Below are positions 1 to 31,515 of a stretch of DNA of 32,216 nucleotides, one piece after another; position 1 is the first letter of the stretch; each line of letters begins with the position of its first letter. Both the position numbers and the translations under genes were made by a program. Where the stretch lies: the NCBI GenBank assembly GCA_013152075.1, contig JAADHD010000198.1, positions 1-32,216 on the forward strand. The letters are read 5' to 3'. The notes under the pieces are model-generated. The model was not told the DNA's origin. It searched no databases and saw only the letters and a program-made list of their open reading frames with translations. The DNA is from Verrucomicrobiota bacterium (lineage in GTDB: Bacteria; Verrucomicrobiota; Verrucomicrobiia; Verrucomicrobiales; DEV007).

Positions 1-3000
1 ATTGACATCATGCAGCAACTTGGAGAAATCCAGCATGTTTGCCTTGGGATGTCCGGGCACTTCCACCTGTTCAAGAAACTCCGGACGACCGATCACTTCA
101 TCCAGGCTTCGGGCTCCAATCGATGCCAAATGCTCCCGGACTTCCTGGGAAACCGCGTTGAAGAAGTTGATCACATTTTCAACCGTGCCTTTGAACTTGC
201 CACGCAACTTCGAGTCCTGGGTCGCAATGCCCACCGGACAAGTATTGAGATGGCAGCGACGCACATACACACAACCCATAGCCATCAGAGCAATCGTGCC
301 GAAATTGAACTCTTCCGCTCCGAGAATCGCGGCGTGCATGATGTCCATCCCATTGCGTAAACCGCCATCGGTTCGCAAAGTCACCCGATCACGCAATCCA
401 TTCAGCATGAGAACCTGTTGGGTTTCGGCCAAGCCGATTTCCCAGGGCATTCCCGCATACTTGATTGAACTCAATGGCGAGGCTCCAGTGCCTCCGTCAT
501 AACCACTGATGAGAATGATGTCCGCTTTCGCCTTGGCGACACCAGCGGCGATCGTGCCCACACCGGTCACCGAGACCAATTTGACGGTTACTCGTGCGCG
601 GGGATTCACTTCTTTCAAATCGTGTATCAGCTGGGCCAAATCTTCGATGGAATAAATATCGTGATGCGGTGGCGGACTGATCAAGGTCACACCAGGCTGA
701 GTGTGACGCAATCTGGCAATCAGGCCATTCACCTTGAAACCCGGCAACTGCCCTCCCTCACCCGGCTTGGCTCCCTGCGCCATCTTGATTTCCAACTCCT
801 CCGCACTGGCCAGATATTCCGCCGACACGCCAAAACGCCCTGACGCAATCTGCTTGATCTTGCTGTTTTTATTGGTATCAAAACGCTCGAAATCTTCACC
901 GCCCTCACCAGAATCAGACTTGCCTCCAATAGCATTCATCGCCATCGCCAGCACTTCATGCGCTTCGGGGCTGATCGCTCCAAGCGACATCGCAGCTGTC
1001 GTGAAGCGGCGGCGAATGTCTTCGATCGACTCCACTTCGTCGATGGGAATCGGCCCGGATTTTTTTACCACCAGGCCAAACATATCATGCAGAGCCAGAG
1101 GTTTGTTCTCCTTGAGATCTGCCAGGTAGGTTTTGTAATCCTCGTCTTCACCAGATTTGACAAATTGATGAAAGCTCTTGATCACCGGACCGTTGACCGC
1201 ATGAACTTCTCCATTCCGACGGTAACGATAATTGCCGGGATCACCCAGCTTCAAAGGCAACTCACTCTCTTCGCCCGGCACCGCCTGGCCAAACGCATCG
1301 TGATGACGCTGCAAACTTTCCGTAGCGATTTCTTCAAAGCCGATTCCGGCCACCTGTGACGGTGTGCCGGAAAAGCAGCGCTCCATCACTTCGTCTCCCA
1401 AACCAATCGCTTCAAAAATTTGCGCGCCCTGATAACTATTGAGAACCGAAATCCCCATCTTCGACATGATTTTCAGCACGCCTTTTTCAAGGCCGGTACG
1501 GTAATCCACCAGCGCATCGACCAGCGACTTCCCTTCGAACACATTTTTGCGATCATTTTCGATCAGCTCTCTCACCGTTTCATGGGCAAGCCAGGGACAA
1601 ATCGCCGTGGCGCCAAAACCTAGCAAACAAGCCATTTGATGCGTGTCTCGAGCCTCTCCTGTTTCGACCACCAAACTGGCCAGCATGCGTTTGTGCTGGC
1701 GGTTCAGATAGTGATGCACCCCCCCGATCATCAGCAAGGTTGGCAGCGCCACGCGTTCGTGACTTATCGCGCGATCTGATAAGATCAAAATCTTCGCGCC
1801 AGCATCAATGGCGGCCTCGGCCGCCACACACACACGCTCCAGCGCTTCTTTCATGCCGGCAGTTCCCTCAGATGCCGACCAGGTTGTATCGATCGTGCTC
1901 GCCGGAAAATCCACGTGCAGGGTTTTCAACTGCTCCACTTGTTCGGTATAGAGAAAGGGCGTTTCCAGATGAATCACCTGGGCATGCTCCGGAGTTTCGG
2001 TGAGCAAATTATGTTCCGGCCCCAAATCCATCGCCAGTGACATCACTAATCGTTCGCGAATGGGATCAATCGGCGGGTTGGTCACCTGGGCAAAAAGCTG
2101 CTTGAAATAGGTATACAACATCTTCGGCCGCAGCGACAACACGGACAGCGACGCGTCGTCTCCCATCGAATAAGTCCCTTCCATTCCGGTTTTTGCCAAG
2201 GGCGTAACGACCATGTCAAGCTCTTCTTTATTATAAGCAAAAGCCACCTGGTTCTGTGACAGAGTCAGTAAGTCGAGATCGGCATTTGGGATTGATGGCT
2301 GAGTGTCGACCAATTCCTCAAACTCAATGCGGTTGTCCTGCAGCCATTTTCCGTATGGTTGCTTGGCCGCAAGTTGTTCTTTCAGTTCCTTGTCACGGAC
2401 CACCACACCTTTTTCAAGGTCGACATATATCATCTGACCAGGCCCCAGTCGTCCTTTTTCGATCACTCGTGAATCCTCCAAACGTTCAGAGCCCACTTCC
2501 GAACCCAGGCAAAAAATGCCATCTTCGGTGATCTTGTAACGCGCAGGCCGAAGCCCGTTGCGATCCAGGCTGGCGGCAATATTTTTCCCGTCAGTGTAGG
2601 CAAGCGCCGCAGGGCCATCCCAGGGCTCACAGAAACAGCGATGATATTTGTAAAAACTGGATACCTCTTCACTCGCCGAGTGGTCAATTCCCCATGCCGC
2701 CGGAACCAGCATCGCCATGGCGTGCGGGATTGAACGACCGGACAATACCAGTGCTTCAAAGGCATTGTCGAGTGAGGACGAATCCGATCCATCGGGATCA
2801 ATCAGGCCCTTGAGCAATTTGATGTCATCACCCCAGACTTCGCTGTCGAAGTCGGCCACACGCGAACCGAACCAGTTACGATTGCCTTTGAGCGTATTGA
2901 TCTCGCCATTGTGTGCGAGCATTCGAAACGGCTGGGCCAGTGCCCAGGTGGGAAAAGTGTTGGTGCTGAACCTCTGATGATACAAACAAATCGCGGTTTC

Positions 3001-3678
3001 AAATTCCGGGTTTTGCAGATCCAGAAAAAAGGCAGGCAAGGCATTGGCTGCCATGAAACCCTTGTAGGAAATCAAGCGGCTGGACAAAGACGCAATGTAA
3101 ATATTCTCAATGGCCTCACTGGCTGCCTTGATTTCGATTTCTCGACGCGCTAGAAACAAAACCCGTTCAAAATCATCGCCGTCCATTCCTTGCGGCCGCT
3201 TGAGCAAAATGTGGTGAATGTCCGGCAAAGTGCTAAGCGCTTTATCGCCCAGAGCACCCGGATTCAATGGAACTTCCCGCCAGCCGATGACACCAATGCC
3301 ACGCTTGCGTAAAACTCCCTCGACAAGAATTTTCCCCTTGATGCCATCTCCCGTTTCACCGGAATGCAGAAAAATCACTCCCACTCCCAGATCTGAAATA
3401 TCACTGAGACTGGCTCCCAGTTTTTCTGCTTCAGCCAGAAAGATAGCGGCCGGAATCTGGGTGGTCACGCCAGCTCCGTCACCAGTCTTGTTGTCCGCGT
3501 CGAGCGCACCGCGATGGGTCACATTACTGACTGCCGTCACACCCAATTGCAAAATTTCATTGCTGGGATGGCCCTGAATCTGAGCCACGATTCCCACTCC
3601 ACAAGAGTCCCGTTCCAATTCGGGCCGATGCAAGCTCCCCTGAGAATTCACTTTCGTCTGATAATATTTGTTCATCAT
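1..3678 (-). CDS. gltB: Glutamate synthase large subunit, second diverged paralog (N-terminus complete, C-terminal end runs off the window start)
   Basis: This gene is absent from the supplied ORF track because it has no stop codon inside the window. I translated the reverse strand by hand from the ATG at 3678 (GGAGA lies 7 nt upstream). The reading gives [172 protein letters not shown], open through base 1 (frame 3678 mod 3 = 0). It is collinear with the 1554-aa GltB at 5543-10207. The plus-strand ORFs listed here (e.g. 622..843) resemble those antisense to gltB1 (7085..7537), as expected for shadow frames of homologous genes. An in-frame alternative ATG exists at 3825, with no stop between it and 3678. 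Confidence 0.9.
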   Translation of the reverse strand, partial: MMNKYYQTKVNSQGSLHRPELERDSCGVGIVAQIQGHPSNEILQLGVTAVSNVTHRGALDADNKTGDGAGVTTQIPAAIFLAEAEKLGASLSDISDLGVGVIFLHSGETGDGIKGKILVEGVLRKRGIGVIGWREVPLNPGALGDKALSTLPDIHHILLKRPQGMDGDDFERVLFLARREIEIKAASEAIENIYIASLSSRLISYKGFMAANALPAFFLDLQNPEFETAICLYHQRFSTNTFPTWALAQPFRMLAHNGEINTLKGNRNWFGSRVADFDSEVWGDDIKLLKGLIDPDGSDSSSLDNAFEALVLSGRSIPHAMAMLVPAAWGIDHSASEEVSSFYKYHRCFCEPWDGPAALAYTDGKNIAASLDRNGLRPARYKITEDGIFCLGSEVGSERLEDSRVIEKGRLGPGQMIYVDLEKGVVVRDKELKEQLAAKQPYGKWLQDNRIEFEELVDTQPSIPNADLDLLTLSQNQVAFAYNKEELDMVVTPLAKTGMEGTYSMGDDASLSVLSLRPKMLYTYFKQLFAQVTNPPIDPIRERLVMSLAMDLGPEHNLLTETPEHAQVIHLETPFLYTEQVEQLKTLHVDFPASTIDTTWSASEGTAGMKEALERVCVAAEAAIDAGAKILILSDRAISHERVALPTLLMIGGVHHYLNRQHKRMLASLVVETGEARDTHQMACLLGFGATAICPWLAHETVRELIENDRKNVFEGKSLVDALVDYRTGLEKGVLKIMSKMGISVLNSYQGAQIFEAIGLGDEVMERCFSGTPSQVAGIGFEEIATESLQRHHDAFGQAVPGEESELPLKLGDPGNYRYRRNGEVHAVNGPVIKSFHQFVKSGEDEDYKTYLADLKENKPLALHDMFGLVVKKSGPIPIDEVESIEDIRRRFTTAAMSLGAISPEAHEVLAMAMNAIGGKSDSGEGGEDFERFDTNKNSKIKQIASGRFGVSAEYLASAEELEIKMAQGAKPGEGGQLPGFKVNGLIARLRHTQPGVTLISPPPHHDIYSIEDLAQLIHDLKEVNPRARVTVKLVSVTGVGTIAAGVAKAKADIILISGYDGGTGASPLSSIKYAGMPWEIGLAETQQVLMLNGLRDRVTLRTDGGLRNGMDIMHAAILGAEEFNFGTIALMAMGCVYVRRCHLNTCPVGIATQDSKLRGKFKGTVENVINFFNAVSQEVREHLASIGARSLDEVIGRPEFLEQVEVPGHPKANMLDFSKLLHDVN

Positions 3679-3808
3679 ATTAAAATCTCCATTGTCGCGA
3701 TTGATAGCGCCCAAATTTTTCTCTATCCAAAGTCCGCCGAAAAACCATTCGTCTGACGGATCAACGTGTTGGAATACCTCTTTCCCGTGCGGGAATCCCA
3801 AAGTCCTT

Positions 3809-3908
3809 CCAAATTCGCGTCTCATTCTCTCAAAGCCGGCAGGAAATCCGGTCGGGAAGGAGTGCAAGTCTGGGTTCAGACCTTAGCGAATCGTGAACAA
3901 AGGTCAAG
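3809..3908 (-). promoter_or_regulatory. Candidate sigma70-type promoter plus conserved 5' leader of gltB paralog 2 (copy A of a duplicated module)
   Basis: On the minus strand, TTGACC (3907-3902), a 16-nt spacer and TAAGGT (3885-3880) are followed by a conserved leader: CCTTCCCGACCGGATTTCCTGCCGGCTTTGAGAGAA......CGAATTTGG. By hand alignment about 76 of 99 columns match 10303-10401, the region upstream of gltB1. Confidence 0.5.
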
Positions 3909-10465: not shown

Positions 10466-11317
10466 TCAAGACTGGTAACGACTGACGGCTGGATACGAAC
10501 CGACGCTGCGAATACTGATCGAGCTTGCCTGCGCGGCATCAAGGGCTCCGATGACGGCTGCATCCCCTTCAGACCCCTCGATTTCGATGAAAAAGCGGTA
10601 GGTATTGGGTTCGCCCAGCACCGGACTGGACTCGATCCGGCTCAAATTCACCCCCTGGGCATCAAATACCGAAAGAAATCGACACAAACTGCCCGCCTCA
10701 TTAGCCAGTTTCACCACCAGACTGGTTTTGAAACCCTCTGTCTCGGCTTCGCCGGGAAAAGACTGCCCCTCGTATCCGATCACCAGAAACTGGGTCACAT
10801 TCGGCACATCGATGGCAATCGGATACTGAAGGATATCCAGCCCGTGCAGCTCGGCACTTTTTTGTGTGCCGATCGCGGCGGCCCCGGATTCTTCAGCCGC
10901 TAACGCCGCCGCCTTGGGAGTGCTGCCCACGCTGACCAGCTGCGCTTCAGGATAGTTTTCCCTCAGCCATGAACGGCAATGATCCAACGGCGCAAAATAT
11001 GAATAAACCTTGGTGATCCCGACGCCCTCACGTCCCAGAAGAGCCAGTTTCACATCAAGCGTGACTTCTTCCAGAATTTGCACTTTGCCCGTGCTTTCCC
11101 TGGCTATCTCCCGAATCGTTTCTTGAATGATGCCCCCGGTAGAATTTTCCACCGGCACGATGCCGCAATGTTCCGGACTGCTGGTCACAAAACCAAACAC
11201 CTCACCCACCGTCTGGCAGGGAACAAATTCACGCTTACCAAAATGCTCACGCGCCACCATGTTGGCAAAACTGCCTTCAGGGCCAAAATGGGCGATAGAT
11301 TTTGGTACAACACTCAT
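10466..11317 (-). CDS. pheA: Prephenate dehydratase with C-terminal ACT domain (monofunctional PheA)
   Basis: The 283-aa ORF carries the PDT motifs FGPEGSF and VPVENSTGG and the TRF-type motif as NVTQFLVIG. The ACT region reads GSLCRFLSVFDAQGVNLSRIESSP..YRFFIEIEG. Confidence 0.85.
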   Translation of the reverse strand: MSVVPKSIAHFGPEGSFANMVAREHFGKREFVPCQTVGEVFGFVTSSPEHCGIVPVENSTGGIIQETIREIARESTGKVQILEEVTLDVKLALLGREGVGITKVYSYFAPLDHCRSWLRENYPEAQLVSVGSTPKAAALAAEESGAAAIGTQKSAELHGLDILQYPIAIDVPNVTQFLVIGYEGQSFPGEAETEGFKTSLVVKLANEAGSLCRFLSVFDAQGVNLSRIESSPVLGEPNTYRFFIEIEGSEGDAAVIGALDAAQASSISIRSVGSYPAVSRYQS

Positions 11318-11340
11318 GCTTTATGAGCAGAATGATACGC

Positions 11341-11354
11341 TTAACAATTGTTAA
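11341..11354. promoter_or_regulatory. Perfect 14-bp palindrome TTAACAATTGTTAA (candidate operator) in the pheA upstream region
   Basis: The sequence is its own reverse complement. It ends 23 nt upstream of the pheA ATG and fills the spacer between a -10-like TATCAT (11337-11332, minus strand) and a weak -35. Confidence 0.4.
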
Positions 11355-11410
11355 ATCCACTGCAATATTTCACGGGCACACGCCTGACTTCATTGCCTCT
11401 TGGTGGGAAC

Positions 11411-11436
11411 GCCGACGTCCTCGTCGGCTTCTTCAT
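11411..11436 (+). terminator. Intrinsic-terminator-like hairpin on the plus strand inside the pheA / CM-PDT intergenic gap
   Basis: The structure is GCCGACG-TCCT-CGTCGGC followed by TTCTTCAT on the plus strand. On the minus strand the tail is GTTCCCACC, which is not U-rich. No annotated plus-strand gene lies upstream. Confidence 0.35.
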
Positions 11437-11715
11437 AAAGCACGCTTCTAATCATCAACGTCAGATCTTCCTAATGGTTGTCGGTAAACTCATCGAGTTC
11501 GCCAGCCACATAAAACGCCGTAAATCCCCATAGCAAATCTGCTCCTTCGATATCAAACATCAGACAACAGGTTTTGAACTCAAGCGGATCTAACATAACA
11601 TCCTCAATAACCAAACGCTTGTTACACAACCCCTCATTTTTATATCTTACCCCTGGACGCCTTTTAGCCCTTCACCGCCGGATAGCTTCCCAGTACTCGA
11701 ACCGTTTTCCCAGAC

Positions 11716-12513
11716 TCAGTTAACCGCTCTACCTGCTGTTACAATATCAGGCTCCGTCTGATGCCCCTGCAACTCAACGAACACACAGGAAGGCTTACCG
11801 GAATCTGTTTCCTGACGACTGTCAATCTGGGTCACAGAAAGGTCGAGTTCAGCGAGTGTTTTCATCGAATCTGATAAAATCTCTCCCGCCTTACCGTGAA
11901 TCAGCAAAGCGGTGATGTCCCTTCCCGTCGGCGGGCAAGTGTTGTGACACAATACCAAAAACCGTGTCGCTCCCGACGATTCCCCGCGATCACCGAACAA
12001 TGTCACCTGGGCGCAAATCTGTAGCGGGGAATCAACAAAAAAGTCCAGTGTCCGGTTCACCTCGCCATCGGTCGAATTGCCAATCGGCACCACCCCGTAA
12101 TCCGCATTACGTTTGCTGACCTGATCAAACACATCCGCCAAGGATGCCTGGGCCACATAGGCCACGCTTGCACCAAATTTGTTTCTGGCGGCTTGGTGCG
12201 TCCAGGTGCCTTCCGGGCCGAGGTAGGCAATTTTTAGATTTTCCTCCAAAGCCAGCGCCGCCGACATGATCTCGCGATAAATCGCTCGAATTGATTTTTC
12301 CGGTAAGCGCCCCTGACTTTTTTTCACCAGTGACTGTAGCAATTTTTCTTCACGCTCAGGCGCATAAATCTCCAGTCCGTTTTCCTTTTTGATCTCGCCA
12401 ACCGCATGTACCAGATCTGCACGAGCATTCATCAACTCCAGCAAACGGGAGTCCACCTCATCAATCTCGACTCGCAATTCTGCGAGCGTTTTTCCTGTCC
12501 CTCCGTCTTTCAT
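11716..12513 (-). CDS. Chorismate mutase fused to an internally shortened prephenate dehydratase/ACT-like region
   Basis: The protein is 265 aa. Its N-terminal type II chorismate mutase helices read LAELRVEIDEVDSRLLELMNARADLVHAVGEIK..IRAIYREIMS. The PDT start follows (IAYLGPEGTWTHQAA, VVPIGNSTDG). The sequence then jumps straight to ATRFLVL and an ACT-like tail, and the usual ~90 residues between are missing. Confidence 0.7.
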   Translation of the reverse strand: MKDGGTGKTLAELRVEIDEVDSRLLELMNARADLVHAVGEIKKENGLEIYAPEREEKLLQSLVKKSQGRLPEKSIRAIYREIMSAALALEENLKIAYLGPEGTWTHQAARNKFGASVAYVAQASLADVFDQVSKRNADYGVVPIGNSTDGEVNRTLDFFVDSPLQICAQVTLFGDRGESSGATRFLVLCHNTCPPTGRDITALLIHGKAGEILSDSMKTLAELDLSVTQIDSRQETDSGKPSCVFVELQGHQTEPDIVTAGRAVN

Positions 12514-29746: not shown

Positions 29747-29771
29747 AGAAAAACGCATTAGGCGCTAATGC
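29747..29771 (-). terminator. Rho-independent terminator after the His-rich operon
   Basis: The minus strand reads GCATTAG-CGC-CTAATGC followed by GTTTTTCTG. It lies 36 nt after the stop at 29808. Confidence 0.7.
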
Positions 29772-29807: not shown

Positions 29808-30206
29808 CTAGCGAAGTCTTTTTACGTTATGAATCCGTGCAGAATACCCATGAATGCCAATCGTCAACCACCGGTCACTGCGACGACTAATAAGGACATG
29901 CGCGCGCTCATGAATATGCCGACTCAGCTCAGGTAAAGGATGATGCATATAGATGTAATAATAGTGATGCCCGTGATACACTTTTGCTTTATAAATGTGA
30001 CCACCATGATCATCGTGTCCCACCTCGCCATAATAAGCATGGATCGTCACATGCGTGCTGTAAGTATCATTGGCGCGAACGAGCTGAGGAAACAGTAGCG
30101 TGCTAGCCAAACACGCTAAGAAAAAAACCAGGCGGCGAATACTCAAGCGGGAGCAAATGATGTGTCTGAATTTCATTGGACTGATCGTTGTTAATTTCCT
30201 GTACAT
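29808..30206 (-). CDS. Secreted His/Tyr-rich small protein (no recognised family)
   Basis: The 132-aa ORF has AGGA 9 nt upstream of its ATG and starts 17 nt after the stop of the upstream repeat protein. The signal-like region is ..LVFFLACLASTLLFPQLVRA. The mature part, NDTYSTHVTIHAYYGEVGHDDHGGHIYKAKVYHGHHYYYIYMHH.., has roughly 15 His and 10 Tyr by hand count. Confidence 0.55.
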   Translation of the reverse strand: MYRKLTTISPMKFRHIICSRLSIRRLVFFLACLASTLLFPQLVRANDTYSTHVTIHAYYGEVGHDDHGGHIYKAKVYHGHHYYYIYMHHPLPELSRHIHERAHVLISRRSDRWLTIGIHGYSARIHNVKRLR

Positions 30207-30223
30207 TGTGTGATCCTACTTGC

Positions 30224-30598
30224 TCAATGCCCCCTGTGAGTACGACGTCCGTAAGAGTGACCGTAAGAGCGGTGACCATACGCACGATGACGTAAGCGCC
30301 CGTGGCCGTATGCATGATGTCCATAGCTACGATGGCCATAAACACGATGCCCATAGTGTCCGTGCCGGTATGAACCATGCCCATAAGCACGATGCACACC
30401 ATAGGAGCCATGCCTGTACGAGCCGTGCCTATTGTGACCACCCCCATGAGATGCAAATCCAAAATTGGCAACAATTCGTAAGCCGTGCCCCGCGCCGTGA
30501 TGTCCCTGAGCTGCAACTTTTTGACTGGTCATAAAACCAAACGTGGCCACCAGGGCAATGATAAGTAAGTGAATTTTCGATGTATTTGAATATTTCAT
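30224..30598 (-). CDS. Secreted His/Gly/Tyr/Arg pentapeptide-repeat protein, paralog 1
   Basis: The likely start is the ATG at 30598 (MKYSNTSKIHLLIIALVATFGFMTSQKVAAQ signal peptide); the track starts at a TTG at 30619. The mature ~93 aa read GHHGAGHGLRIVANFGFAS then HGSYR HGSYG VHRAYG HGSYR HGHYG HRVYG HRSYG HHAYG HGRLR HRAYG HRSYG.., with no Asp, Glu or Lys. Only this frame has a signal peptide. Confidence 0.65.
   Translation of the reverse strand: MKYSNTSKIHLLIIALVATFGFMTSQKVAAQGHHGAGHGLRIVANFGFASHGGGHNRHGSYRHGSYGVHRAYGHGSYRHGHYGHRVYGHRSYGHHAYGHGRLRHRAYGHRSYGHSYGRRTHRGH
30227..30448 (-). repeat. Imperfect 15-nt (pentapeptide) coding tandem repeats
   Basis: In ORF-track numbering, Tyr recurs at residues 84, 89, 94, 99, 104, (109 is Leu), 114 and 119. 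The DNA shows recurring ccataagcacgatg-like units, and the region stays open in several frames, as expected for repeat DNA. Confidence 0.7.
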
Positions 30599-30702
30599 TT
30601 TATTGATTGTTTCGTTCAATCAATTCGACGGAACAGTGTCCGATTTATTCAAAGCTATCATCAAAACTTTCAAAAAAATTAACCTTTTCCCCAAGTTGTC
30701 GG

Positions 30703-30837
30703 TTAGCCCGCATTTTTCATGGCATTTTGTAGGGGGGCACAGGAATGGCTGATTGTGCCAAGGCGATTTCAAGGACAACGTAGGCAGAATCAGCCAGGAC
30801 AAGTCGCAGTAGAAATGTTGTGAAAAATGCGGGCTAG
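30703..30837 (+). other. ~134-nt nested palindromic / highly structured element between the two repeat-protein genes (candidate structured RNA or MITE-like element)
   Basis: A perfect 16-bp inverted repeat, TAGCCCGCATTTTTCA (30704-30719) with TGAAAAATGCGGGCTA (30821-30836), forms the outer stem. Nine more pairs (30720-30728 with 30812-30820) extend it, and four of these are G-U wobbles that work only in a plus-strand RNA. The inner stem is TGGCTGATTGTGCC (30746-30759) with GGCAGAATCAGCCA (30783-30796), pairing at 13 of 14 positions. Confidence 0.5.
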
Positions 30838-30920
30838 ATGGACATCTCTACAGATGCTTGCGGAAAAAACTCCGGCGGCAGCGCCAAGGCAAAAACATGC
30901 TCGCCGGACGATATCTCGAA

Positions 30921-30952
30921 AAGCAGCAAAAAAGAGCGCTCTATGAGCGCTC
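30921..30952 (-). terminator. Rho-independent terminator after repeat-protein paralog 2
   Basis: The minus strand reads GAGCGCTC-ATA-GAGCGCTC (8-bp stem) followed by TTTTTTGCTGCTT. It lies about 70 nt after the stop at 31024. Confidence 0.75.
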
Positions 30953-31023
30953 AACCAGGAAATATTGCTTTTTTTTGGCAATCATAGCTGGCGTTTTAGC
31001 CATTTTTTTACGGGCACAAGCGT

Positions 31024-31398
31024 TTAATGGCTCCTGGAGTAGCCGTGACCGTATGCCCGACGGGTAGTATATCCATGCCCATTGCCACGCCGGCTAGAGG
31101 ATCCATGTCCATAAGAACGGCGCCCGTATGATCCGTGTCCAGCGGATCTGCGGCTGTATGATCCGTGTCCGTATGAGCTTCTGTTGTAATAGCCGTGACC
31201 GTATGCTCTGGAGCTGTAGGAACGGTGGCTGTATGCCCTGCCACCATAAGAGGCATGCCCAAGACTGACACTAATCTGAGCGCCATGGCTAACAGTGCGG
31301 TGCCCTTGAGCGCTGGCTTTCGGGCTGACTACCAATCCGATTGTGGTTACAAGGACGGCGATGAAGAAACTGATTTTTAATTTATTAGGAGTTTTCAT
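31024..31398 (-). CDS. Secreted His/Gly/Tyr/Arg/Ser repeat protein, paralog 2
   Basis: The 124-aa ORF has the signal peptide MKTPNKLKISFFIAVLVTTIGLVVSPKASAQ. The mature ~93 aa read GHRTVSHGAQISVSLGHAS, then period-5 Tyr and six decapeptides: YGHGYYNRSS YGHGSYSRRS AGHGSYGRRS YGHGSSSRRG NGHGYTTRRA YGHGYSRSH. There is no Asp, Glu or Lys. The N-terminal motif AQGH....HG..I....G.AS.GG is shared with paralog 1. Confidence 0.65.
   Translation of the reverse strand: MKTPNKLKISFFIAVLVTTIGLVVSPKASAQGHRTVSHGAQISVSLGHASYGGRAYSHRSYSSRAYGHGYYNRSSYGHGSYSRRSAGHGSYGRRSYGHGSSSRRGNGHGYTTRRAYGHGYSRSH
31027..31257 (-). repeat. Imperfect 15/30-nt coding tandem repeats (penta/decapeptide)
   Basis: GHG recurs exactly every 10 residues (67, 77, 87, 97, 107, 117). 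Tyr recurs at 51, 56, 61, 66, 71, 76, 81, 91, 96 and 116. Confidence 0.7.
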
Positions 31399-31515
31399 TG
31401 TATTGATTTTTTGTCATTCACCTATTTTGACGAAACGGCTGACAACTTATTCAAATCCTTCACAAGAAATTTCCGTAGCGACGCGAATTCGTTCGTGAAC
31501 ATCCGCTTATCAGAG

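Follow-up and report, generated by a model that had tools for sequence, protein, structure and literature searches.

Does a cluster of small histidine- and tyrosine-rich secreted proteins, encoded near one end of a Verrucomicrobiota contig, represent a genuine genetic system, and what might such a system do? The cluster lies on the minus strand between positions 29808 and 31398 of a 32,216-nucleotide stretch of DNA (the window; contig JAADHD010000198.1 of assembly GCA_013152075.1), where an earlier note had read three proteins of one kind. We identify two kinds instead: a repeat protein, P, present as the paralogs P1 and P2, and a folded protein, X, which belongs to a rare family of its own and often occurs without P. 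P1, P2 and X are real conserved genes, and the frame that begins with the signal peptide is the selected one. X is a new family of small secreted beta-barrel proteins. Both families lie outside all curated libraries and solved structures searched.

The selected reading frame and the gene layout

The reality of these genes was assessed against a syntenic relative, L001 (NCBI assembly GCA_054033055.1; its Logan copy is L002), which was reached through P0001, the sole close homolog of X. P2 of the window is collinear with its L001 ortholog in the DNA alignment, and substitutions across the repeat region number 15, 3 and 27 at codon positions 1, 2 and 3 of the signal-peptide frame. Synonymous and non-synonymous codon changes stand at 18/16 in that frame, compared with 10/27 and 1/36 in the other two. 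The repeats do not drift between frames in this comparison; such drift is what the earlier note had named as evidence against its own reading.

Divergence was estimated by the Nei-Gojobori method between the window and L001. Non-synonymous (dN) and synonymous (dS) values were 0.135 and 0.68 for the P2 repeats (dN/dS 0.20) and 0.093 and 0.80 for mature X (dN/dS 0.12), and they ranged over 0.017-0.042 and 0.25-0.51 for the flanking PhoD, thioredoxin (Trx)-SHD1, PBP1 and rhodanese genes (dN/dS 0.07-0.10). Overall dN/dS for the P and X genes is 0.12-0.24, and the ratios for P2 and X place both genes under purifying selection, with protein change that is 3-5 times faster than that of their neighbours (dN about 0.09-0.14 versus 0.017-0.042). 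Within a second and more distant pair of loci, L005 and L011, the indels in P measure 3, 24 and 6 nt, every one a multiple of 3, and non-synonymous divergence in the repeats reaches a pN of 0.40.

Public gene calls on P in L001 (8825..9115) and L011 (2654..2902) follow an overlapping alternative frame (for example, MALRLVSVLG...). The codon-position pattern rules out this alternative open reading frame (ORF), which runs through 31008..31286 on the minus strand of the window, as a real gene. The near absence of the P family from protein databases is explained in part by these wrong-frame calls.

The features of the locus are as follows; the three ORFs sit where the earlier note had placed them.

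31024..31398, minus strand: P2, secreted repeat protein of 124 aa, as in the ORF list; signal peptide of residues 1-30 ending ASA/QG, mature chain of 94 aa.
30224..30598, minus strand: P1, secreted repeat protein, 124 aa counted from the ATG at 30598; signal peptide ending VAA/QG, mature chain of 94 aa.
29808..30206, minus strand: X, small secreted beta-barrel protein (as predicted) of 132 aa from the ATG at 30206; signal peptide ending VRA/ND.
30915..31003, minus strand: X', remnant of a second X-family gene, with its ATG at 31003, from DNA alignment with L001 9112-9195.
30926..30952, minus strand (stem-loop 30952-30934): terminator hairpin and T-run of the P2 unit, with an 8-bp palindromic stem GAGCGCTC and loop ATA, inside the X' remnant.
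29755..29771, minus strand: terminator-like hairpin 3' of X, GCATTAGCGCCTAATGC followed by GTTTTTCT.
31429..31453, minus strand: promoter-like motif of extracytoplasmic function (ECF) sigma type for the P2 unit (TGAATAA-N14-CGTC), with 30 nt between its end and the P2 ATG.
30627..30651, minus strand: ECF-type promoter-like motif for the P1-X unit (TGAATAA-N14-CGTC), with 28 nt between its end and the ATG at 30598.

Signal peptides were called by inspection from a basic n-region and a hydrophobic core followed by the ASA/QG, VAA/QG and VRA/ND junctions, which supports the previous assignment of Sec-type signals to all three proteins. Sequence checks also bear out the 17-nt gap between P1 and X and the AGGA (7 nt) that precedes the ATG of X. 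An alternative X start at M11 (ATG 30176, giving 122 aa) is the conserved start in the ortholog. The ORF list begins P1 at TTG 30619 (131 aa), and this start was rejected because it lacks conservation and follows the promoter motif's CGTC by 7 nt. The two hairpins with T-runs described before are present at 30952-30934 and 29771-29755, and the latter, 3' of X, shows no conservation in L001. A further 9-bp hairpin (TAGCGTGTT...CACGCTA) occupies 30096-30118 on the minus strand, in the signal-peptide coding region of X; it is the counterpart of the hairpin in the signal-peptide region of X' and is not conserved in the X gene of L001.

The repeat proteins and the predicted barrel

Mature P1 (94 aa) contains 23 Gly, 21 His, 14 Arg and 11 Tyr, and mature P2 (94 aa) contains 20 Ser, 19 Gly, 14 Arg, 13 Tyr and 11 His. 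Asp, Glu and Lys are absent from both, in exact agreement with an earlier hand count of His, Tyr, Arg, Lys and acidic residues, and Met and Cys are absent as well. His thus makes up 12-22% of the mature chain and Arg 15%, with a net charge of +14 at neutral pH, and Arg and Tyr recur every 5-10 residues (14 Arg and 11-13 Tyr per 94 aa). P2 places GHG at residues 67, 77, 87, 97, 107 and 117, a strict 10-aa period of six GHG-x7 repeats that includes one exact GHGYY and two GHGSY pentapeptides. In P1 the units have a period of 5; [HR][GR]xYG is matched seven times and GHGSY occurs once. In the DNA beneath both, the repeats (15- and 30-nt periods) are degenerate.

AlphaFold2 predicts a helix for residues 5-24 of P2 and assigns residues 27-124 a pLDDT below 50 with no secondary structure (from a two-sequence alignment), and mature P is accordingly predicted to be intrinsically disordered. 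The P genes share a signal peptide, an N-terminal motif HG-x-[QR]-[IV]-[SV]-x-[SN]-x-G-[HF], repeats rich in Gly, His, Tyr, Arg, Ser and Asn, and a C-terminal R-S/G-H. Orthologs keep the signal peptide, both terminal motifs and the composition as the repeat sequence turns over, which suggests that P evolves like a disordered region constrained in composition rather than in sequence.

The earlier note had compared these repeats to the GHGxY elements that drive coacervation in squid-beak histidine-rich proteins, and this analogy fails. The squid-beak proteins (HBP) and the derived HBpep require at least four tandem GHGxY units in which x is Val, Pro or Leu, and they have only a couple of Arg or Lys residues, HBP-2 having only two trypsin sites (PMC6884462). 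P resembles HBP-1, HBP-2 and HBpep in being disordered and rich in Gly, His and Tyr, in its exact GHGSY and GHGYY pentapeptides, and in His residues that could act as a pH switch. However, P1 has one GHGxY unit and P2 three, none in tandem and with Ser or Tyr at x; there is no homology, and 14 Arg in 94 residues would hold the charge at +14 after His deprotonation. Neither the tandem, hydrophobic-x arrangement nor the low fixed charge of the squid proteins is therefore found in P.

A sticker-spacer polycation of the type represented by tick GRP77 appears to be the better analogy. In this secreted cement protein, spaced Arg and aromatic residues within a Gly-rich chain drive salt-dependent condensation through cation-pi and pi-pi contacts, and the condensate ages to an adhesive gel (PMC11794139). 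As judged from sequence and prediction, P has the same sticker-spacer character as GRP77 and FUS-type domains: like GRP77 it is secreted, disordered and Gly-rich with regularly placed Arg and aromatics, and in P these are denser. The two are not homologous, and P differs in being bacterial, in its 12-22% His and zero acidic residues, and in having a folded partner gene and an ECF-type promoter-like motif.

The partner is a protein of another sort. Mature X (87 aa, or about 88) contains 15 His and 10 Tyr, and its AlphaFold2 model (pLDDT 94.9) is a six-stranded barrel with one short helix. Foldseek returned nothing at E < 0.1 against PDB and BFVD; the nearest structures were oligonucleotide/oligosaccharide-binding (OB) folds, including HIN, SSB, RPA and PmrD, at TM scores of 0.45-0.55 and E values of at least 0.15. 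We read this high-confidence model as a beta-barrel that appears OB-like. An exhaustive HMMER search recovered 14 family representatives among 1.84 billion representative proteins. Family members span 81-206 aa, nearly all with a signal peptide, and share invariant V, D, Y, L and W residues, with no family-wide conservation of His. The two X-family genome loci that carry organism titles are Verrucomicrobia/Verrucomicrobiales metagenome-assembled genomes, and the module is apparently Verrucomicrobia-specific and built from two undescribed families. X had no sequence or profile match to PDB chains, Pfam or NCBIfam, and 18 X-family members gave only scattered single chance matches.

Within the family, a distant subgroup (P0012-P0017) has two conserved Cys residues, one in PMPCL and a later one in LC or MC. 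C-terminal extensions in this subgroup end in aromatic-acidic, FYYDD-like sequences (SPFYYDD, SPFYHND, GLFDW), which may be a sorting or interaction signal.

Other searches agree with the previous view that no characterised family accounts for these proteins. P1, P2 and X matched nothing in Pfam or NCBIfam at E <= 1; PADLOC gave only a chance HicA-like match to residues 1-25 of the P1 signal peptide (E = 0.024, 12.5 bits); and no Rfam family reached its gathering score at the locus. A weak match to the small RNA MicX on the plus strand at 30919-31009 (23 bits versus a gathering score of 75; E = 0.02) overlies the palindromic hairpin and is read as chance. Exact-sequence look-ups of X, P2 and P1 in a contig index returned no record, and a metagenome scan with X gave no match. 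The sole metagenome match to P, L016, is a false positive, read from another frame of a gene with HU-like Ala/Lys/Arg repeats. A profile of four P sequences searched by word index against 5.8 billion proteins gave one marginal match, P0020 (E = 0.09). This protein, with RSYGH repeats on a low-GC contig, lacks the N-terminal motif and an X neighbour, and we do not count it as a P-family member; the resemblance is convergent or uncertain. At its locus (L007 574-1810; the same in L008), three tandem genes including P0020 encode small secreted basic proteins with near-identical MKKLLCI... signal peptides, again with no X, and the repeat protein there may be a convergent analogue of P. We found no description of the P-X pairing or its promoter signature in the literature searched.

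The abundance of His raises the possibility, which we consider somewhat unlikely, that the pair buffers metal in the periplasm. In this scheme Cu(II), Zn(II) or Ni(II) would be soaked up by P, a disordered sponge rich in His, and X would serve as a small barrel metallochaperone or metal-binding partner; the pair would be functionally analogous to SilE/PcoE with CusF and induced through an ECF factor under metal stress. ECF sigma factors govern some metal resistance systems, and SilE carries His and Met motifs and is encoded within sil/pco efflux operons. This idea draws on the His content of mature P (12-22%) and mature X (17%), on the repeated H-G and G-H-G units of P, and on an X homolog in L006 that lies upstream of a multicopper oxidase with a Met-rich segment. 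In addition, P1 and P2, if cleaved at the predicted site, would begin with Q-G-H, an X-X-His site of the amino-terminal Cu(II)- and Ni(II)-binding (ATCUN) type. However, the orthologs in L005 and L011 begin G-T-P-H, and an N-terminal Gln may cyclise and block the site. In addition, mature P lacks Met, Cys, Asp and Glu, its fixed charge of +14 disfavours cation capture, and metal buffering leaves the regular spacing of Tyr and Arg unexplained.

SilE/PcoE sponges are small, disordered, Sec-exported and His-containing candidates for periplasmic metal buffering (PMC5008109), and P shares these features. P has the signal peptide (by inspection) and the disordered mature chain (AlphaFold2, shallow alignment), whereas it lacks Met motifs, any Pfam or NCBIfam match and nearby efflux genes, and no metal transporter or sensor adjoins any P-X module. 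X, in turn, is like CusF and the YgiW/YdeI BOF family a secreted protein of ~88 aa predicted to form a barrel of five to six strands with a short inter-strand helix. It nevertheless has no Cu(I) Met/Trp site and no similarity to a PDB chain, its His residues fall outside the invariant V, D, Y, L and W set, and hhalign gave a probability of 0.1% against a hand-typed CusF sequence.

A shared promoter-like signature and recurrent pairing

TGAATAA and CGTC blocks separated by a 14-nt spacer are invariant in a five-sequence alignment of P upstream regions, a common signature that the earlier note had not pointed out. The pattern occurs twice in the window, each time upstream of a P gene, against 0.06 matches expected. 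A relaxed form, GAATA[AT]-N14-15-CGTC, has 15 matches in 124 kb (the window plus fetched loci) versus a mean of 0.8 in shuffled sequence, and 13 of the 15 lie 27-40 nt before a P or X ATG, including the distant X genes without P in L009 and L013. The ECF26 promoters of S. meliloti mapped by 5'RACE (rapid cDNA-end amplification) read GGAATAA-N15-CGTCT (PMC6180224). The P/X motif, (T)GAATAA-N14-CGTC(A/G)A, resembles these promoters of RpoE1, RpoE4 and RpoE6 in its -35 (GGAATA(A)) and -10 (CGTC/GT) elements, its spacing (~14-16 nt) and its promoter-like distance from the ATG. S. meliloti belongs to another phylum; the likeness suggests that an ECF sigma factor may control the P-X module.

Upstream of P2, 113 of 117 nt are identical between the window and L001, a tighter match than at nearby synonymous sites. 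This unusual conservation extends through the first 50 codons of P2 (window 31281-31515 versus L001 8596-8830), where dS is 0.16, compared with 0.25-0.5 in neighbouring genes and 0.68-0.94 in the P2 repeats and X. The contrast may reflect a constraint at the regulatory or RNA level, gene conversion, or mutation or expression regimes that differ.

Four independent loci whose flanks are unrelated place P immediately upstream of X: the window (P1-X), L001 (P2-X'), L005 and L011. L003 is a possible fifth case, where the contig edge cuts into a Gly/His repeat ORF and two X genes come after its remaining tail. The window genes neighbour rhodanese-PEMT, thioredoxin-SHD1 and PhoD, and the first two had been taken to hint at a redox or metal context. 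Because the pairing recurs with different flanks, a LuxR/MalT-type regulator before P and X and an MTAP-like gene on the other side in L005 and L011, the thioredoxin-SHD1 and rhodanese neighbours are incidental and do not bear the hint out. We also considered radical-SAM/Memo genes ~2 kb away in L001 as possible modifiers, and set them aside because neither L005 nor L011 has them in its module. In L006 (3888-6639), a close X homolog without P lies ~150 nt upstream of the gene for a 755-aa multicopper oxidase with a Met-rich segment, the one metal-related setting seen among X-family genes.

Comparison with L001 also revises the picture of P2 as a unit of its own closed by a clean intrinsic terminator. 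L001 carries P2, an intact X' (P0002, 128/134 aa), ~430 nt, and X, and lacks P1. X' of the window has a 1-nt insertion in an A-run that shifts the frame, and its homology to L001 X' stops after the signal-peptide region, which marks it as a pseudogene remnant. The hairpin and T-run after P2 are present as described, placed within this remnant, and the solitary state of P2 is secondary. In L001 the same hairpin, with a compensatory T-A to C-G change (GAGCGCCC GTA GGGCGCTC), falls within the signal-peptide coding region of the intact X' and has a weaker T-run. The promoter motif found before P1 in the window has its counterpart at L001 9862-9887, where it is joined directly to X. From these alignments, the ancestral order was likely P2-X'-P1-X, with one gene lost since in each genome.

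We weighed two further explanations. In the first, which we judge quite unlikely, the function would reside mainly in X, a secreted OB-like protein under ECF control, and P would be a lineage-restricted, fast-evolving low-complexity accessory that shares its promoter and has little specific function. X is indeed more widespread than P and keeps the promoter motif where P is absent; P occurs at only four or five loci and has been gained or lost between close relatives, and its repeats diverge strongly between L005 and L011. Yet P has kept its reading frame, its signal peptide, its N-terminal motif, the RSH at its C-terminus and its composition across lineages that are saturated at synonymous sites, the P2 repeats evolve at a dN/dS of 0.2, and the window retains two P paralogs.

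In the second, P would be a secreted cationic antimicrobial or competition peptide resembling histatins or shepherins, and X the producer's periplasmic immunity or sequestering protein. Gene content varies among close relatives (P1 lost in L001, X' lost in the window) in a manner reminiscent of toxin/immunity turnover, X genes without P recall orphan immunity genes, P2 and X proteins evolve faster than their neighbours (dN 0.10-0.14 versus 0.017-0.042), and the unrelated low-GC metagenome contig bears three tandem small secreted basic proteins rich in His, Arg and Tyr. Histatins and plant shepherins also share with P a composition of His, Arg or Lys, Tyr and Gly, with zero acidic residues in P, and P1 and P2 possibly share an X-X-His N-terminus; histatin 5 contains the strings HRGY and HHGY, compared with RHGSY and THRGH in P. 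These peptides nonetheless come from eukaryotes, measure 24-38 aa and have no sequence relationship to P, the X-X-His start is not conserved in P orthologs, and P at 94 aa is long for the class. The P-X modules have no processing, export or ABC-transporter genes nearby, and a Sec signal alone does not cross the outer membrane. Diversifying selection is not seen (dN/dS ~0.2), and an ECF-type promoter common to P and X-only loci fits a stress regulon better. We consider this explanation improbable.

Two other observations concern distant parts of the window. A stop-free frame of ~1294 codons on the minus strand at 1-3900 runs off the window start and is hence absent from the ORF list. Two adjacent minus-strand ORFs at 10466-12513 match prephenate dehydratase (PDT), one with PDT and ACT and the other with chorismate mutase and only the first 78 PDT positions; the pair may be a split or duplicated pheA.

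Candidate function of the P-X module

From the comparisons above we infer ECF dependence, an interaction between P and X, condensation and a biological role, and we tentatively favour the following reading as a possible account of the module. An ECF-sigma-type promoter (GAATAA-N14-CGTC) would start transcription, and its type would imply that the module is switched on by an extracytoplasmic signal. P would be exported through Sec as a disordered polycation in which spaced Tyr and Arg stickers are separated by Gly and Ser spacers, with 12-22% His. Once outside the cytoplasm it could condense through Arg-Tyr cation-pi and Tyr-Tyr contacts, as does the glycine-rich protein of tick cement, with condensation tuned by His protonation or metal binding. 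Anionic polymers of the envelope or matrix would probably join the condensate, and the envelope may as a result be coated with it or surrounded by a gel. X would bind P as a holder, anchor or nucleator, most plausibly at HG-x-Q-I-S-V-S-x-G-H, the sole conserved non-repetitive segment of P, just past the signal peptide.

Several points weigh against this proposal. The charge of +14 at neutral pH opposes self-association of P unless it is screened by salt or polyanions, and the predicted disorder derives from a shallow alignment. In a diderm cell, a Sec signal alone leads only to the periplasm. The window holds no ECF sigma or anti-sigma gene. In L005 (3854-3881) and L011 (2953-2980), a conserved sigma-70-like TTGACA-N16-CAAAAT ends 8 nt before the X start, and X in this clade may have a transcript of its own, possibly one that is nearly leaderless. 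Finally, X occurs without P in L006, L009, L012 and L013, which indicates that X has a function that does not need P.

A bolder form of the condensation proposal would make the module a stress-induced bacterial extracytoplasmic condensate: ECF-driven export of an Arg/Tyr/His/Gly protein, phase separation or gelling at the envelope with pH or metal tuning through His, and X as chaperone or nucleator, together a prokaryotic counterpart of the secreted coacervating proteins of animals. We regard this extended form as unlikely.

The significance of the module is bounded by its rarity, known as it is from a handful of genomes, all uncultured. Should ECF-controlled P indeed condense outside the cytoplasm, the module would offer a genetically simple bacterial case in which extracytoplasmic phase separation or matrix formation is regulated and involves a defined partner, and a new source of short His/Tyr/Arg coacervating sequences. 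Whatever the function proves to be, the locus shows how repeat genes of strongly biased composition can be called in the wrong frame systematically and thereby stay hidden from databases of billions of proteins, and X constitutes a new family of secreted barrel proteins with a recognisable regulon signature.

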